Below are positions 3,244-29,829 of a stretch of DNA of 32,000 bases, piece by piece. The DNA is from Sedimentisphaera cyanobacteriorum (GTDB taxonomy: Bacteria; Planctomycetota; Phycisphaerae; Sedimentisphaerales; Sedimentisphaeraceae): assembly GCF_001997385.1 (NCBI RefSeq), contig NZ_CP019633.1, positions 2,100,001 through 2,132,000 of the forward strand, given 5' to 3'. The first letter of the stretch is position 1; each line of letters opens with the position of its first letter. The notes beneath the pieces were generated by a model. It had not been told where the DNA came from. It saw nothing but the letters and a program-made list of their open reading frames with translations, and did not search any database. The position numbers and the translations under genes were made by a program.

Positions 3244-3319
3244 TGGCTCCTCGAGTAGGACTCGAACCTACAACCTAGCGGTTAACAGCCGCTCGCTCTA
3301 CCGATTGAGCTATCGAGGA
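3244..3319 (-). tRNA. tRNA-Asn (anticodon GTT), CCA encoded
   Basis: The reverse complement folds as a 76-nt cloverleaf. Acceptor tcctcga/tcgagga, D arm gctc-aatcggta-gagc, anticodon arm agcgg-ctGTTaa-ccgct, variable aggtt, T arm gtagg-ttcgagt-cctac, discriminator g, CCA. Confidence 0.95.
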
Positions 3320-8401: not shown

Positions 8402-8562
8402 TGCACTGATGGCACAGATAATTTTAAGAATGTAAAGCCCTTCTATAAAACAATTTATATCAAAATACTTCGCGGGCCTCGAGCACTTCGTGGTTTCAAA
8501 CAAATTACAATAAATCTTCGTGCCATTCGAGCCCTTCGTAGTTCAAATCCAATCCCACGTGG
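8309..8562 (+). repeat. Intergenic repeat family B, copy 1, with a downstream array of CTTCGTG-like heptamers
   Basis: The core 8408-8506 aligns with 14027-14122 at roughly 75-80% by eye. Weaker similarity links 8309-8370 to 13981-14026. CTTCGCG lies at 8468, CTTCGTG at 8486 and 8516, CTTCGTA at 8534, CCACGTGG at 8555. Confidence 0.7.
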
Positions 8563-8711
8563 TTTAAAAAAATTACCCGCCCAAAAATATTGCCGCAGAC
8601 AAATGTGCAAAGAGCAAAATTTTCTTGAAAAACGTATTAAGTTTGGTAGAATGAAATATAAGATAAAGTTTATGCTCTAATAATTAATTAACATAAATCG
8701 AAAGGTGAGTT

Positions 8712-9634
8712 ATGAGGAATTTGACTGTTTCAGTGTTTTTGGCAATTTTACTGCTTTCGGTAAATGTGTATTCTTTTGAAATTATCGGCTTTGAGCCGCC
8801 GCATTATACGGCATCTCAGGGCTTGCCTGCGCCTTGGACTGCAGGAACGGAAAATGCCGGCATCACAGATGTTAACCCTGTCTTTGACGCTCAGTCACTC
8901 TATGCGGGCGGCGAGGGTTCGACAACTGCCGGAACGATATGCACATATCCATTTGACTTACCCGAAGTGATGAGTTTACTTTTTCTGTAACATTAAGAGC
9001 GCCTTCATACAGTCCTGGTAGTTATGGACATGGCTATGTCGGTTTGGGCGGGGTAAGATTTATAGGTTCTAATGCCATTGGTTCCAGGCTTGGGAATATA
9101 TATTTTGATCTGCAAAAGCCATACGGCTCATCGGTTAGTCCTTCTCATTACAAGATAGTTTACGTAAATTATGATTCTTGGCCATATCCTATAATTGGCA
9201 ATTTCGTAAATGGCGGCACATACACTCTCACCTACAATATCAATTGGCAGCAGAAAACTTCGTCGCTAAATATTCAAGGTACAGGCGGAATTGACATTAC
9301 CGTAAATGCTCAAAACGGGTTAAGCGGAATTAATAGAGACAACTTTGAGGGTGTTGAGCTGTATGGGCACAGCATCCCTGAATCTGCAGGAAATTACAGA
9401 GTGCTTTATGACGATATTATAATCGGCAAAGAGCCTGAAGGGTTGGTCGGAGATTTCAATTCCGATGGAGTTGTTGATTATGAAGATTTTGCTGTTTTCG
9501 CTGTTTGCTGGCTAAGCGAGCTTGGCGGTTTAAATTGGAATTCAGCCTGCAATCTTGATATTGACGGCGACAGTGCAGAAAAAATAGACATCGCAGATTT
9601 GCTCATTTTCAGCGAAAAATGGATTGGGGAATAG
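8712..9634 (+). pseudogene. Secreted protein with C-terminal dockerin-like repeats, split by a frameshift (or sequencing error) near 8957-8990
   Basis: ORF 8712..8990 supplies only a signal peptide plus ~70 aa. The frame of ORF 9044..9634 is open back to 8957 and overlaps it. The track start at 9044 is TTG with no SD. The C-terminus has GDFNSDGVVDYEDFAVFAVCW and DIDGDSAEKIDIADLLIFSEKW. Confidence 0.6.
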
Positions 9635-9733
9635 CGGGCAGTTACCTGTTTACTGTATAAAAATGTGTTAAAACCACGAAGTGCATCAAGACAAGAGATA
9701 TTTATTTGAAACTTCGCCCGGAGGGAAAAAGGG
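9631..9733 (+). repeat. Intergenic repeat family A, copy 1 (~103 bp)
   Basis: Aligns with 11456-11559 with 3 substitutions and 1 indel. It starts at the stop codon of the upstream gene. It contains AAACCACGAAGTGC, the reverse complement of the family B core GCACTTCGTGGTTT. Confidence 0.9.
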
Positions 9734-9913
9734 TTAGGTCTCTTCTTGCGGTATTTTTACAATACTATTGCTTATATTGTTGATGGTTTGTGCTGTGAGG
9801 GCTGTGGTTTGCCATTTTACATTCTCCAGCCTTAGGTCTCAAGCCTGATCGTTGTAAACAAAAGGCGGCGTTGTGCTGTCTTATAATTATAAATATTGGA
9901 TTGAAAGGGAAGT

Positions 9914-11266
9914 ATGATGAAAAAGTTATTTTTGTTGTCGTTTGTTTTAATGTTTGCCTCCGCGGCTTTATTTGCCGGTTCGATCGAAGGTGTGAGCCCT
10001 GCTAATGCGTTAAAGGGGCAAAACGCAGTCATTACATTGGATTGTGAGGGCACGTCTTTCACCACCGATGCTGTCGTTGGTGTGTGGCTGGTTAAAGGCA
10101 GTCAGCTATTAAGCGCCGGTAGCTTTACTGTATTAAGCGATACACAGGTAGAAGCGGAGTTTGACCTGTCCGAAAACATCGATAAGGGTATTTGGGCGGT
10201 TGTTGTGTATTCTGAAGGCGGCGTATTCATTCTTGATGAAGGCTTTACTGTTTACGACCCTGATGTCAATGGTGATGGATTGGTTGATACTGTTGATTTC
10301 AGCCTCTACGCGAAACATTTACTTGAAGTAATGCCGGGATATACCCTTGTGCCGAATCTTGTGGAAATTCCTCAAGCCGATGCCGAGCAGCAGATAACCG
10401 ATGCGGGGCTGGTTTTGGGAACTGTAACCGAAGATTACAGCGATACCGTTTCTGTCGGTCTTGTAATGGATCAGTCGCCGCCCGCGGGGCAGAGTGTGGC
10501 TATCGGTTCAACAGTTGATTTTGTTGTTTCTCTTGGCGAGGAAGTAACCGCCCCTGATATCACATGGGTTTATATAGATGACCCCGGCGTTAGCGGGCAT
10601 GAGGGCTTTACCGGCTATATGAGCAAGTATGAGACAACCAACGCGCAGTATTGCCAATATCTTAATGAAGCCCTTGCATCGGGAGATATTGAGGTACGAG
10701 CTAACAATATAGTTTATGGCACAAGCGGCTCTTACAGCGGGCAAATTTACTTTGATACCTATGCCGCGGATAGTGATAGTCAAATAACCTACAGCGGCGG
10801 CGTTTTCAGTGTACGCACAAGGGACGGCTACGATATGAGCAGTCATCCTGTAGTAGAGGTTAGCTGGTACGGCGCGACGGCTTTCGCCGCCTATTACGGC
10901 TGGCGGCTTCCCACGGAGTGGGAATGGCAGGCGGCTGCTGATTATGACGGCAGCTACACTTACGGCTGCGGCACGAGCATCGACCACAGCAAGGCGAATT
11001 ATGACTGGGATAACCCGCTGGATTTCTCAAACTATCCCTATACGACGCCTGTTGGCTATTACGATGAGTTCGGCTACGGCTTGTGCGATATGGCAGGCAA
11101 CGTGTGGGAATGGACGGACAGTTGGTATTCAACCAGTCAAGACTACCGTGTTCTCCGCGGCGGCAGCTGGGGCTTCAATGTCAGCAACTGTGCCGTCTCG
11201 TACCGGTACGGCCACGACCCGTACAGCACTAACTACTACGACGGGTTTCGTGTCGTTCGTCCGTAG
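9914..11266 (+). CDS. Secreted multidomain protein (dockerin-like repeat, PASTA-like domain, C-terminal FGE-sulfatase/C-type-lectin-fold domain); DGR variable-protein type
   Basis: Signal peptide present. DPDVNGDGLVDTVDFSLY is dockerin-like. VPNLV...AEQQITDAGLVLGTV...VMDQSPPAGQSVAIGSTVDFVVSLG is PASTA-like. The FGE-type fold shows HPVVEVSWYGATAFAAYYGWRLPTEWEWQ, GNVWEWT and RVLRGGSWG...GFRVVRP. Confidence 0.85.
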   Translation: MMKKLFLLSFVLMFASAALFAGSIEGVSPANALKGQNAVITLDCEGTSFTTDAVVGVWLVKGSQLLSAGSFTVLSDTQVEAEFDLSENIDKGIWAVVVYSEGGVFILDEGFTVYDPDVNGDGLVDTVDFSLYAKHLLEVMPGYTLVPNLVEIPQADAEQQITDAGLVLGTVTEDYSDTVSVGLVMDQSPPAGQSVAIGSTVDFVVSLGEEVTAPDITWVYIDDPGVSGHEGFTGYMSKYETTNAQYCQYLNEALASGDIEVRANNIVYGTSGSYSGQIYFDTYAADSDSQITYSGGVFSVRTRDGYDMSSHPVVEVSWYGATAFAAYYGWRLPTEWEWQAAADYDGSYTYGCGTSIDHSKANYDWDNPLDFSNYPYTTPVGYYDEFGYGLCDMAGNVWEWTDSWYSTSQDYRVLRGGSWGFNVSNCAVSYRYGHDPYSTNYYDGFRVVRP

Positions 11267-11343
11267 TCTCTGGATTTAACACTTTGCTCTTTTTTCTTTT
11301 ACACTTTGGGGTGCAGGGGCGTTAGCCGCTGCTCGCGAGAAAA

Positions 11344-11454
11344 TTGAAAAATCGGGAATTGAAAATCATACAGGATTTTTATGATTTCACCCTTTGGGTA
11401 ATGAATCATATAAAAAAATTTCCCAGACACCAGAGATATTCACTCGGCAATTGA
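11344..11454 (+). pseudogene. avd: 5' stub of a DGR accessory gene (Avd-like four-helix-bundle protein), truncated after ~32 codons
   Basis: Reads (L)KNREL-KIIQDFYDFTLWVMNHIKKFPRHQRYSLGN-stop. This matches the Avd N-terminal pattern (Y-D-x3-W ... F-P-R-x2-R-[FY]-x-L-G). Possible TTG starts at 11344 or 11359. The stop coincides with the start of repeat A copy 2. Confidence 0.6.
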
Positions 11455-11455
11455 A

Positions 11456-11559
11456 ATAGTGGGCAGTTACCTGTTTACTGTATAAAAATGTGTTAAAACC
11501 ACAAAGTGCATCAAGACAAGAGATATTTATTTGAAACTCCGCCCGGAGGGGAAAAAGGG
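11456..11559 (+). repeat. Intergenic repeat family A, copy 2 (~104 bp)
   Basis: Near-identical to 9631-9733. Looser similarity continues for ~20 bp (TATTTTTAC at 9751 and 11571). Confidence 0.9.
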
Positions 11560-11639
11560 CAGCTGTCCCCTATTTTTACTGTGAGCCTCCGTGGTTAATA
11601 TATTTTTTCTACCACAAGAAATAGGCAGCTGTCCCCTTA

Positions 11640-13877
11640 CTACCTCTGGGGAAGCGGGGAAAAATACAGATTTTGTATCTTATCATCGCTCAATGCTTTA
11701 TCATACACCCTGAAATCGTCAATGATGCCTTCAAAAGGCAGGTGTCCGCTGCGGTTAATGCCGAGCTGGATCCTGTCTATCTGCGTGTCGCTTGCGTTTA
11801 TACTGCCTGCCAAACTGCCGTTATAGTACAGCTTTGTGGTTTCATTTTCGCAGGCAACTGCAATATGCGTCCATGAATCTTCAACCGCACCGATTATCCC
11901 GTCTTCAGAGCCGTGGTATCTGTAGCTGCCCGGGTTTGTGCCGTCAACGTCAATCTGGAAGGTATCTGCATTGTTATTGCTGCTTGTGTTGAAAAGGCCG
12001 CTGTAATTTGCCTGTCCCAGCTGCTCAGGCTTAACCCAAAGGCTTACCGTATATTCCGGCCAATCGCTGTATCCTAAATCTAATGTAACTTTGTCGTCAA
12101 TTCCGTCGAAATAAAGCCCGCTGTCGGAAATACCCAGCACAGAGCCCTCTTGGAAGTTCGTACCGGAAAGAGTGCCGAATCTCGAATTTTCGCTTGAATC
12201 TGAGGCCTGCGTGCCTGTTTGTTCTTCAAACTTCCACCAGCAGAACATATTATTAAAAAATCCCGGCCAGTCTTTGGAAAAGGCGGATAAATCTATCATA
12301 TCCACAAATCCATCTCCAGAGGAAGAAGGTGCGATATCTGCGAATATATTCTCCGGGGAAGACATCCATTCCTCGCTGAGGAGCATAAAGTCTTCGATAT
12401 CAACCTCCATGTCTGCGTTTATATCCGATTTGCTCATAACCGCTGTTATTTTGGTGAGCGAAATTCCTGGAGCTGAAAAAGTGATCTGATTATCTTGATT
12501 CAGAGAAGGAGACATCCTAATCGATCTGTGCCAGCCGTTATCGCCCTCGGCCATTGATGTTGCAAAAACAGAATCGGGGCTTATATTCCCAAGGTCTATC
12601 GTAAAATCCCTGCTTTCGCTGCTGTCTTTGCTTAGAATCAGAATTACTATCTTCGGGTTTTTAGAATTCTCTGTTCTTTCAGCAAGAGCCCCCAGCACAA
12701 TGGCGTTTTGATGGTCTGAGTCAAAAGTGTGAACCTTCTGACCCTGGATATCCTTGAACATCTGCATTGCAGTGAAGCTCGGCCTGTGTTTGTAAGGTTC
12801 AAACTCAATAAGATTTCTGCCTGAACCCGGCCAGTAGATCGGCCAGATGCAGGCCATATCCACGTTCTTCTCAATGAACATCATCATAATCTCAGACATC
12901 ACCATCGCCTGATCGAAGAAATTGCCGTTATCGCTTTGCGTACCTCCAGACCCGCCGTAATTCCATTCAAGAAATCCAAGCTCAATATGTTCCATGCCCG
13001 TATTCTTGCAGAACTGATGGAAGCTGTCTATTTCTGATTTGTATCCGTCAACGGTGAAATCATTGAGCCACTCGCTTCGCGAGTATTCGCCCCAAGCACC
13101 CGTATTGTAATACAAATGCTTGTCTATAACATCGAAATACTGCCCGTAATCTCTCACCAAGTCCTTTACAGTCCAATGTGAGAGGCCGTGTATATAGTTG
13201 CATATAAGCTTTATGTTCGGGTATTCGTTTTTAATACCAATCGAAAACTGCTTTACAAGCTCCGGATAAGCCCCCGCATCTATATGGTTGGGAAGCCCGC
13301 CCTGATGGCCAACCTCATTATCAAGATAGAGGTAAGTTACATCGAAATCATTCTGCTCGCAGTAATCAAGCATTGCCACCGCCTCATCTATTGAATCCTG
13401 CACTCGGTCGAATTTATAGCCTGCAAGCACGTTTACCCCCAGAATCGGCTCTATATCAAGGTTTTTGCATTGCTGGATATACTCATCCAGATCCATATAT
13501 CCCGAATATCGCTGCTCTCTGACCGCCCTTGAGTCGAATGTTCTTGAAGGGTCCCATAAATCTTCCCAGCCACCGGAGAACGGGTCGTCCCAGTGCCAGA
13601 ATGATACAATGTGCCCGCCCGGATAGCGGAGGGAGGTTACTCCTAAATCTTCCATAGTTTGGGGCAGATACTGGTCTTGCCAGCGTTCGTCCGGCATCCA
13701 GCCGTCCTCCGGCTGATCGGGAACGCAGTAAAGAGTGTTGTAGCCGAAGAGCATCTCATTCACCGTTTTATCCTGCCCGGATACATAATTTATATTCACC
13801 TGTTCAGCCGCGGCAAAAGCTGAGGCTGCCGATATCAATAGGAAAAATGCTTTTTTGGGGATATATCTCATAATCAC
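11640..13877 (-). CDS. Secreted clan GH-A (TIM-barrel) glycoside hydrolase with dockerin-like repeats and C-terminal LamG/concanavalin-like domain; family not resolved
   Basis: Signal peptide present. LRYPGGHIVSFWHWDDP, YLYLDNEVG (acid/base NE) and LGFLEWNYGG (nucleophile E) fit clan GH-A. Dockerin-like DINADMEVDIEDFMLLSEEW and GDGFVDMIDLSAFSKDW follow. The LamG-like tail reads LYFDGIDDKVTL...YTVSLWVKP...WTHIAVA...LYYNGSL...FEGIIDDFRVYDKALS. Confidence 0.75.
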   Translation of the reverse strand: MIMRYIPKKAFFLLISAASAFAAAEQVNINYVSGQDKTVNEMLFGYNTLYCVPDQPEDGWMPDERWQDQYLPQTMEDLGVTSLRYPGGHIVSFWHWDDPFSGGWEDLWDPSRTFDSRAVREQRYSGYMDLDEYIQQCKNLDIEPILGVNVLAGYKFDRVQDSIDEAVAMLDYCEQNDFDVTYLYLDNEVGHQGGLPNHIDAGAYPELVKQFSIGIKNEYPNIKLICNYIHGLSHWTVKDLVRDYGQYFDVIDKHLYYNTGAWGEYSRSEWLNDFTVDGYKSEIDSFHQFCKNTGMEHIELGFLEWNYGGSGGTQSDNGNFFDQAMVMSEIMMMFIEKNVDMACIWPIYWPGSGRNLIEFEPYKHRPSFTAMQMFKDIQGQKVHTFDSDHQNAIVLGALAERTENSKNPKIVILILSKDSSESRDFTIDLGNISPDSVFATSMAEGDNGWHRSIRMSPSLNQDNQITFSAPGISLTKITAVMSKSDINADMEVDIEDFMLLSEEWMSSPENIFADIAPSSSGDGFVDMIDLSAFSKDWPGFFNNMFCWWKFEEQTGTQASDSSENSRFGTLSGTNFQEGSVLGISDSGLYFDGIDDKVTLDLGYSDWPEYTVSLWVKPEQLGQANYSGLFNTSSNNNADTFQIDVDGTNPGSYRYHGSEDGIIGAVEDSWTHIAVACENETTKLYYNGSLAGSINASDTQIDRIQLGINRSGHLPFEGIIDDFRVYDKALSDDKIQNLYFSPLPQR

Positions 13878-13980: not shown

Positions 13981-14122
13981 CACTAAGAGGGTATGTTTTT
14001 GGTAAATTTTTCCGCGGATTCCTGCGGATGGCACAGATAGTTTTATGAATGTAAAGCTATGTTATAAAGCAATTTACAAAAAATCTTCGCGCCTTTGGTG
14101 TGCTTCGTGGTTTAATCAAATT
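13981..14122 (+). repeat. Intergenic repeat family B, copy 2
   Basis: 14027-14122 aligns with 8408-8506. CTTCGCG lies at 14085 and CTTCGTG at 14103. Confidence 0.7.
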
Positions 14123-14138
14123 CCCCTGCCGAAAACAA

Positions 14139-28937: not shown

Positions 28938-28992
28938 TAAATAAACTTTTATAAGATACTACTTCTAAAACAGATAAATGGAGCATATTATA

Positions 28993-29829
28993 ATGAGAAA
29001 ACCATTCATAGCAGCAAACTGGAAGATGAATACCGACAGTCAGTATGCATTAGAGCTGGCATCAGGGCTCGAAAAGGCAATCGCAGATATTCAGGGTGTG
29101 GACGTGGCAGTATGCCCGCCATTTGTTTATCTTCAGTCTGTTGCGAAAAGCCTTTCTGTTGACGGTAACGTTGCAGTTGGCGCGCAGGACGTATATTTCG
29201 AGGGCAACGGCGCATTCACTGGCGAGATAAGCTGCGAGATGCTCAAAGATGTGTGCTGTTCATACGTTATCACAGGCCACTCAGAGAGAAGGCATGTAAT
29301 AGGCGAGAGCGATGAGCTTATCAACAAGAAAACCAAAGCTGCACTTGAAGCCGGACTGAAACCGATTCTGTGCATTGGAGAGCTTCTTGAGGAAAGAGAG
29401 GCCGACAAAACCAGTGAAGTTTGCGAAATGTTGAACCGTCATATCTGCCTGATTTTCAAAAGAGAGGCCGACAAAACCAGTGAAGTTTGCGAAAGGCAGC
29501 TTCGCGAGGGGCTCAAAGGCATCAGCGAGCAGGAGCTTGCTAACGTAACTATCGCTTACGAGCCAGTTTGGGCTATCGGTACCGGTAAAACCGCCACATC
29601 AGATCAGGCGCAGGAAGTTCACGAGTTTGTAAGAGGCGTAATCGCCGAGCTATACAGCAAAGAAGCTGCTGAAAATATCATCATCCAGTACGGCGGTTCT
29701 GCTAAGCCTAAGAACACCAAAGAGCTGATGAGCTGCAAGGATGTTGACGGGCTTTTAGTAGGCGGCGCTGGGCTCAAGGTTGACAGCTTCTATGAAATGG
29801 TGAAAATAACCGAAGAGCTTTATAAGTAA
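28993..29829 (+). CDS. tpiA: Triosephosphate isomerase carrying an in-frame 22-aa insertion
   Basis: Motifs AANWKMN, GHSERR, CIGE, AYEPVWAIGTGKTA and QYGGS are present. I prefer the ATG at 28993 (GGAG 9 nt upstream). The insertion is described in the findings. Confidence 0.9.
   Translation: MRKPFIAANWKMNTDSQYALELASGLEKAIADIQGVDVAVCPPFVYLQSVAKSLSVDGNVAVGAQDVYFEGNGAFTGEISCEMLKDVCCSYVITGHSERRHVIGESDELINKKTKAALEAGLKPILCIGELLEEREADKTSEVCEMLNRHICLIFKREADKTSEVCERQLREGLKGISEQELANVTIAYEPVWAIGTGKTATSDQAQEVHEFVRGVIAELYSKEAAENIIIQYGGSAKPKNTKELMSCKDVDGLLVGGAGLKVDSFYEMVKITEELYK
29393..29494 (+). repeat. Perfect 36-bp direct duplication separated by 30 unique bp, inside tpiA
   Basis: AAAGAGAGGCCGACAAAACCAGTGAAGTTTGCGAAA occurs at 29393-29428 and 29459-29494. 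The spacer TGTTGAACCGTCATATCTGCCTGATTTTCA lies at 29429-29458. Confidence 0.95.

Follow-up and report, generated by a model that had tools for sequence, protein, structure and literature searches.

The stretch analysed here, 32,000 nucleotides of the genome of Sedimentisphaera cyanobacteriorum (Planctomycetota, Phycisphaerae; contig NZ_CP019633.1, positions 2,100,001 to 2,132,000; hereafter the window), contains the target gene of a diversity-generating retroelement (DGR) which has neither a reverse transcriptase (RT) nor a template of its own, an arrangement of a known kind. The last ~125 nt of the open reading frame (ORF) of this gene are a genuine DGR variable region (VR), and a fragment of the accessory gene avd follows it. 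The locus is probably, in a view held with modest confidence, a remote DGR target, namely a cassette copy truncated by birth or by reduction, whose VR is rewritten in trans now or was so until recently. Such a locus would be a 3'-truncated copy of a cassette of the order target, avd, RT and template repeat (TR), and would serve as a remote ('orphan') target: in mutagenic retrohoming, cDNA made from the template repeat, with random bases opposite the adenines, would replace the VR. The parts retained in cis for targeting would be the GC-rich 3' end of the VR, a conserved spacer and a hairpin, together with the first 35 codons of avd. Because related Sedimentisphaerales genomes show such an arrangement, we infer that the rewriting is done, still or until recently, by a DGR core located at another place in the S. 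cyanobacteriorum genome. The existence of remote targets is established for non-phage DGRs (Wu et al. 2018, PMC5758913).

The target gene and its variable region

The target gene and its VR have the following positions.

9914..11266, + strand: DGR target gene, encoding the 450-aa variable protein (ORF list, Pfam)
11147..11272, + strand: VR with NNC codons (codon-register comparison with three S. salicampi VRs and with the TR and VR of the related locus L038)

The target ORF is uninterrupted up to its stop codon at 11264-11266. Its protein begins with a signal-peptide-like segment, carries according to Pfam a PASTA domain (aa 146-206, nt 10349-10531, E = 1.4e-15) and an FGE-sulfatase domain (aa 235-449, nt 10616-11260, E = 3e-34), and ends in GNVWEWT...RVLRGGSWGFNVSNCAVSYRYGHDPYSTNYYDGFRVVRP. 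The C-terminal domain matches solved FGE structures and the Treponema denticola protein TvpA (2y3c, E = 1.7e-6), and the VR lies at the C-terminal end of this C-type-lectin/FGE-sulfatase-fold domain. An earlier interpretation of the same DNA, made from the letters alone (the sequence-only reading), had recognized in the 450-aa protein the end of a DGR variable-protein fold, which both the Pfam match and the sequence end bear out. It had also regarded the combination of a dockerin-like repeat, a PASTA-like domain and the lectin fold as unusual, and this part has to be given up, since the PASTA plus FGE-sulfatase architecture is common to dozens of the best 120 target homologues and the dockerin-like motif (aa 117-137, nt 10262-10324) is weak, with a Pfam E-value of 0.004 that is under the cut-off. 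The target is probably a secreted binding protein, in which the VR would encode the ligand-binding face of the C-terminal FGE-type C-lectin domain.

The VR has an invariant frame, CGTGTTCTCCGCGGCGGCAGCTGG...GTCTCGTACCGG...CCG...GGGTTTCG, in which the diversified codons occupy 11171-11242. The 3' end of the TR homology is placed between ...TAGTCTCTG and the following GATTT, and the 5' limit given above is a minimum, as the true limit could be near 11117. Within 11171-11242, 18 of the 24 codons (75%) are NNC and all five tyrosine codons are TAC, as is another at 11144, whereas the part of the gene upstream of 11144 has 16 TAT and 13 TAC; the codon count thus reproduces what the sequence-only reading had reported. 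That reading had attributed the pattern to mutagenesis of template adenines, and the comparison with other VRs confirms the attribution. For this purpose the TR of the related cassette L038 was taken as a stand-in for the cognate TR, and four Sedimentisphaera VRs were compared, that of the window and three S. salicampi copies (L001, L002 and L003). By this proxy the variation falls at TR-adenine positions: 32 of the 36 L038-TR adenine positions vary among the four VRs, against 10 of the 69 other positions (Fisher p = 5e-14). The variable sites number 19 at the first, 15 at the second and 8 at the third codon position, and the frame common to the four is CGTGTTCTCCGCGGCGGC.GCTGG...GTCTCGTACCGG...CCG...GGG with TAGTCTCTGGATTT after the stop. 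The L038 TR itself is not the cognate template of the window VR, from which it differs at 11 non-adenine positions.

A cassette cut within avd

Downstream of the VR lie the further parts of the locus, which are listed here with the cassette of L038 to which they correspond.

11273..11308, + strand: conserved post-VR spacer, GATTT and then the pyrimidine-rich core TTTGCTCTTTTTTCTTTTACACTTTG at 11283-11308 (multiple alignment with L038, L073, L002 and L001)
11313..11332, + strand: hairpin GCAGGGGC-GTTA-GCCGCTGC, with an 8-bp stem and one internal G.G mismatch (DNA folds of five loci)
11344..11454, + strand: avd stub of 36 codons with a TTG start, MKNRELKIIQDFYDFTLWVMNHIKKFPRHQRYSLGN and stop (BLASTP, phmmer, NCBIfam)
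9630..9742, + strand: direct repeat R, copy 1 (repeat finding, pairwise alignment, blastn)
11455..11567, + strand: direct repeat R, copy 2 (same methods)
L038 cassette, in coordinates of that locus: target 9551-10642; avd 10733-11068 (111 aa); RT 11065-12462; TR 12131-12273

L038, from a Sedimentisphaerales metagenome-assembled genome (MAG; CAXXMR010000015.1), is a complete DGR of the order target-avd-RT-TR and the one complete related cassette that was found. Its VR and TR differ almost exclusively at adenines of the TR, its Avd scores above the NCBIfam DivGenRetAVD cut-off (91.5 bits against 80) and is also recognized by Pfam bAvd, and its surroundings are ordinary chromosomal genes. The window is collinear with L038 through the VR, the spacer and the hairpin and into codon 35 of avd, and because of this collinearity it can be read as the 5' part of an L038-like cassette cut inside avd. 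The two loci, and L057, located in the MAG of L038 on a different contig, resemble one another in the FGE-type target fold, the VR frame, the spacer core, the hairpin position and the Avd N-terminus (27/35), in so far as each part is present. Beyond codon 35 of avd, where the cassette in the window ends, L038 goes on with the rest of avd, an RT and a TR; the L038 target has no PASTA domain, unlike the target in the window.

The stub begins 77 nt past the target stop, at the same position relative to the VR, spacer and hairpin as avd in L038, and its stop codon is the TGA at 11452-11454; homology to Avd stops at codon 35. It is identical at 27 of 35 positions (77%) to residues 1-35 of the 111-aa L038 Avd by BLASTP, with a phmmer E-value of 2e-14, and it matches positions 1-30 of 104 in the NCBIfam profile NF033474 DivGenRetAVD at E = 1.4e-5, the fragment scoring 25.4 bits against a cut-off of 80. 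The start codon is TTG, where avd in the relatives starts with ATG. A full-length Avd is a four-helix bundle of about 105-130 aa, of which 36 codons are present here, and phmmer found no further avd sequence in the six-frame translation of the window. A word-indexed protein search with 42 aa of in-frame stub sequence gave no candidate with three 5-mers in common, a negative without weight since the L038 Avd, rich in words of the stub, escaped it as well. In view of these alignments the stub is best regarded as the N-terminus of a DGR Avd, homologous to the family and presumably not a functional member of it. An Avd-like N-terminus just past the target stop, which an Avd profile search was expected to recognize, had been proposed from the letters, and the profile match agrees with it; the proposal that it ends after ~32 codons where a ~104-bp repeat begins was right as to the junction, the lengths being revised to 36 codons and 113 nt.

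The stub also bears on the opposite view, that there is no DGR at all, the Tyr/Asn/Gly-rich C-terminus being the ending of an FGE-sulfatase subfamily and the short ORF behind it a chance product or a relic of a 23S-rRNA-IVP gene. To this view belong the weak match of the stub to Pfam 23S_rRNA_IVP (E = 0.027) and the loci L004 and L006, the ends of which are similar to that of the target and show no clear NNC signature, with no RT or avd in their context; nor was an RT or avd found in the contexts of L007 and L009. An origin of the stub as a generic 23S-rRNA-IVP relic is ruled out by the DivGenRetAVD match and by its identity with an Avd that passes the cut-off, at the same distance from VR and hairpin, and the view as a whole is refuted because the VR variation shows the adenine-mutagenesis signature. 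It deserves hardly any credence.

The non-coding elements between VR and stub follow a family consensus, in which ...CTG and GATTT after the VR are succeeded by a pyrimidine-rich core, TTTGCTCTTT.T.CTTTTAC.CTTTG, then by a GC-rich hairpin and then by the avd start. The 26-nt spacer core (at most 6 substitutions) lies downstream of a VR at 14 loci, of which L038 only has an adjacent RT. A consensus scan describes the spacer as promoter-like (TTAACA-18-TACACT); it is near-identical in S. cyanobacteriorum and S. salicampi, and Rfam gave nothing credible for the locus. The hairpin of the window is located where DGR target-recognition hairpins lie, and perfect stems occupy the same position in L038 (CCAGGGGC/GCCCCTGG), L073 (ACAGGGG/CCCCTGT) and L002 (GCAGGGGGC/GCCCCCTGC), with compensatory changes of the outer stem pair among these three. 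Both kinds of cis element 3' of a VR, the GC-rich VR end and the downstream hairpin, are present in the window, the latter with its one mismatch. In addition, a second hairpin type, TCCGAGCGAAGCGAGGA, stands downstream of the spacer core in place of the GGGG.CAGGGGC hairpin in L001, L003, L009, L011, L013, L022 and L035; it includes GCGAAGC, which we take to be a very stable DNA mini-hairpin.

Related targets were collected by an FGE-domain alignment scan with one genome per species, which yielded 78 loci, nearly all in Phycisphaerae, Sedimentisphaerales and other Planctomycetota MAGs and none from a Sedimentisphaera isolate. An RT was present in the fetched DNA at one of the 78 (L038), 33 of the loci having at least 5 kb on both sides, and RT-less targets are the norm in this family. 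L057 keeps the spacer, has a partly decayed hairpin inside which the copy ends, and has no avd or RT. Against the L038 TR, it shows 28 differences at A positions over the 166 nt compared and, by alignment reading, 4 non-A differences inside the TR-VR homology; judged from this pair, RT-less copies of the kind found in the window can correspond to a TR far away from them. The point at which avd breaks off is not the same everywhere: it is codon 35 in the window and approximately codons 31, 15 and 12 in L073, L002 and the pair L001 and L003, respectively. The L073 stub also contains a stop codon and is joined to a sequence that resembles the 3' end of a dockerin-like gene. The alignments suggest that remote targets of this DGR family may arise as 3'-truncated copies of target-avd-RT-TR cassettes. 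At L040, stretches 10526-10644 and 11246-11390 match the L038 TR and a second FGE domain starts at about 10681, which suggests two tandem DGR-type targets in one MAG.

The truncation junction of the cassette is marked by copy 2 of R, which starts at the base just past the stub stop codon. Copy 1 lies upstream of the target gene, starts at the stop codon of the ORF 9044-9634 and includes the motif AACCACGAAG; the copies agree at 92% of positions over 113 nt and at 96% over 105 nt. By blastn, R has no further copy in the window and does not occur in 90 related loci, and with this absence it is unlikely to be a widely shared element.

Other repeats were seen in the same sequences. The motif AACCACGAAG, with one mismatch allowed, occurs 8 times in the window against 1.6 expected, among others within the two R copies; its sites include 9672, 11497 and 11587. 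A similar, CACGAAG-rich repeat follows the remote target in L057. An intergenic repeat pair, 8408-8587 and 14027-14135, 82% identical over about 57-110 nt, brackets four genes (8.7-13.9 kb). In L002 (S. salicampi CP021023) direct repeats about 67 nt in extent, which repeat finding gave as two neighbouring families at 11203-11269 and 11691-11748, flank a PDDEXK_3 gene (11311-11697); the first copy begins at the end of the L002 avd stub, as R copy 2 does in the window.

Age of the rewriting and whereabouts of the core

The S. salicampi copies indicate when the VR was last written. L001 and L002 are in a complete genome, and L003 is at the L001 locus in a second strain. The upstream FGE domain is about 75% identical between S. 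cyanobacteriorum and S. salicampi, with third positions 51-57% and four-fold sites 37-47% identical, that is, close to saturation. In the VR frame, by comparison, the window and L001 agree at 33 of 35 third positions (94%, against 57% upstream) and at 66 of 69 non-A positions (p = 1.3e-6). Because the VR frame is near-identical and the neutral sites near-saturated, the VRs of both species must go back to what is essentially one template, used long after the rest of the gene had diverged. The rewriting was thus recent relative to the split from S. salicampi, and the 94% identity retained at neutral VR positions makes an ancient fossil unlikely. Two arrangements agree with the VR data, a resident TR conserved in each species or a core common to both.

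L001 and L003, from two S. salicampi strains, have flanks with 98-99.4% identity, and out of 105 VR positions 31 are different, with 26 of these falling on TR adenines; no RT was called within 10 kb. Outside the VR, the gene, at 91% identity over 1150 nt, likewise exceeds the flanks in divergence, and allele exchange may have contributed to the difference; recent DGR activity in S. salicampi is nevertheless indicated by the distribution of the VR differences. The two strains encode proteins of 582 and 353 aa at this locus, with extra PASTA-region sequence in the longer one, and L001 alone has an IS110 (L001 11977-13221) and a pair of AAA/SMC genes that covers 2.1 kb (L001 5000-7135).

An autonomous DGR has an RT in its cassette and a TR near-identical to its VR, and the window contains neither. 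The VR was slid ungapped along both strands of the window, with and without adenine tolerance, and only the VR itself was recovered, the best non-self match being 52/117. Pfam scans of the large ORFs in the window gave no RVT_1, and tblastn with the L038 DGR RT gave no match there at E < 1e-3. The absence of TR and RT from the 32 kb, which the sequence-only reading had noted, is thus confirmed. Since the window locus lacks avd from codon 36 onward, the RT and the TR, it cannot diversify itself. Searches beyond the window were directed at the core as well. A VR/TR frame pattern of 34 specified bases, with N at the diversified positions, had 0 matches in genome, viral and metagenome collections that are without Sedimentisphaera genomes, the pattern having fixed the T of the invariant TAC, so that a TR with AAC there would escape it. 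The predicted TR 5' end, GTTCTCCGCGGCGGCAGCTGGAAC, had two metagenome matches, both in unrelated DGRs, and none in viral contigs; no close relatives of the L038 RT were found on viral contigs, and the VR, spacer and stub had no match among plasmids (PLSDB) or phages (INPHARED).

Several of these results weigh against a remote target that is served in trans. No cognate TR or RT was found in the window; the protein search with the L038 RT has no Sedimentisphaera among the 120 matches listed, all at least 61% identical; the hairpin stem of the window has an internal mismatch which the related loci do not have; and the 113-nt duplication bracketing the segment has no explanation. Moreover, no third FGE-type S. 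salicampi target, such as one beside an intact core, is among the best 120 target homologues, a point slightly in favour of there being no canonical core with a target next to it. The silence of the L038-RT search is weak evidence because S. salicampi, for which recent activity is indicated, also yielded no RT.

The same observations can be explained by a recent death of the element, after which the target and the avd stub would remain with no working RT or TR in the genome and the VR frozen as last written. We consider this quite possible, though not probable. It accounts for the lack of TR, RT and remaining avd in the 32 kb, for avd being cut at codon 35 with a TTG start, for the mismatch in the hairpin stem and for the lack of a Sedimentisphaera RT among the L038-RT relatives listed, and inactivated DGRs are reported to make up a high share of those in genomes (Wu et al. 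2018, PMC5758913). On the other hand, the ORF is intact, the VR codons are still 75% NNC, the RT search listed none for S. salicampi either, the strains of which differ in DGR fashion, and the VR frame agrees with S. salicampi VRs at 94-96% of its neutral positions, although four-fold sites of the gene are saturated. Because of this last contrast, any loss of the core must be recent. The sequence-only reading had left the choice between a fossil DGR and an orphan target served in trans, and both stay live, the fossil as a young one.

A further explanation places the core outside the resident genome, on a mobile element with avd, RT and TR which is shared between Sedimentisphaera species and writes their VRs in trans. 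It would explain why the TR-derived frame is the same at 66 of 69 non-A positions despite saturated neutral divergence and why no core is seen beside any of the four Sedimentisphaera targets. We hold it to be very unlikely: nothing related was found in IMG/VR, in INPHARED phages or in PLSDB plasmids, L038, the only complete relative, is among ordinary chromosomal genes, remote targets are, as Wu et al. argue (PMC5758913), not expected for phage-borne DGRs, and a resident TR, if it evolves slowly, would account for these data as well. A related idea, which seems unlikely, is that the truncated copies, each consisting of VR, recognition module and an avd stub of variable length, are dispersed 'landing pads' for a core that is shared horizontally or is otherwise not a stable resident. 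If true, it would explain the same-template VRs in two neutrally saturated species and the lack of a core beside four targets, and the 113-nt repeats would mark how the pads move, for example by circle integration at the repeat.

Surroundings, known systems and significance

The remote target in the window lies in ordinary chromosome, with genes for an FtsI-like transpeptidase, ApbE, the ribosomal proteins L13 and S9, TIM and SecG, several glycoside hydrolases and one serine-recombinase element at the left end. The last of these, at 199-2827 on the - strand, comprises a serine recombinase (PF00239), a 327-aa ORF without a Pfam match and a DUF5372 protein; it is bracketed by 42-nt direct repeats (211-252 and 2786-2827, 98% identical) resembling the 3' half of a tRNA, adjoins a tRNA-Asn at 3244-3319 (-) and is probably an integrated mobile element. 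The tpiA ORF (28978-29829) has two exact 36-nt copies within 29393-29494, 66 nt apart, and its Pfam TIM match falls in two stretches, which may reflect an in-frame 22-codon tandem duplication. Upstream of the target gene, the adjacent same-strand ORFs 8712-8990 and 9044-9634, the first with a signal-peptide-like start and the second with a dockerin-like C-terminus, may be one gene split by a frameshift or a stop.

The reference system for DGRs is that of the Bordetella phage BPP-1 (mtd-avd-TR-brt). The locus in the window resembles it in having the VR at the target 3' end, a GC-rich end, a hairpin just downstream, avd next and adenine-specific variation. It differs in that the BPP-1 element is phage-borne and complete, with the order avd-TR-RT as opposed to avd-RT-TR in L038, and in that its target is Mtd and not of the FGE type; to our knowledge no conserved pyrimidine-rich spacer has been described for it. 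In fold, the nearer counterpart is Treponema denticola TvpA, which likewise has an FGE-sulfatase-type C-lectin fold with a C-terminal VR, and T. denticola has targets which are far from the RT and served in trans (Wu et al. 2018, PMC5758913). There, however, the RT and TR are known and the remote VRs match, whereas the target in the window has no RT or TR within the 32 kb and is accompanied by an avd remnant. The inactivated or partial DGRs of surveys (Wu et al. 2018, PMC5758913) are similar in that a DGR component is present without the full set of parts. They were found starting from the RT, whereas the window has a target and an avd fragment without RT, a case that RT-anchored pipelines would leave unreported. 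No paper linking Sedimentisphaera with DGRs was found in the literature, and the genus is not mentioned in the accessible supplements of Roux et al. 2021.

The known picture of DGR function is unchanged by the finding, which at the same time illustrates that RT-anchored DGR surveys miss targets without a nearby RT. With it, a cultured and genome-sequenced planctomycete joins the organisms with DGR-diversified surface or secreted proteins. Furthermore, the 26-nt spacer and the hairpin are retained at many RT-less targets and are candidates for elements required in cis by retrohoming in this DGR family, and since S. cyanobacteriorum and S. salicampi are both cultured, the spacer-hairpin module is directly testable.

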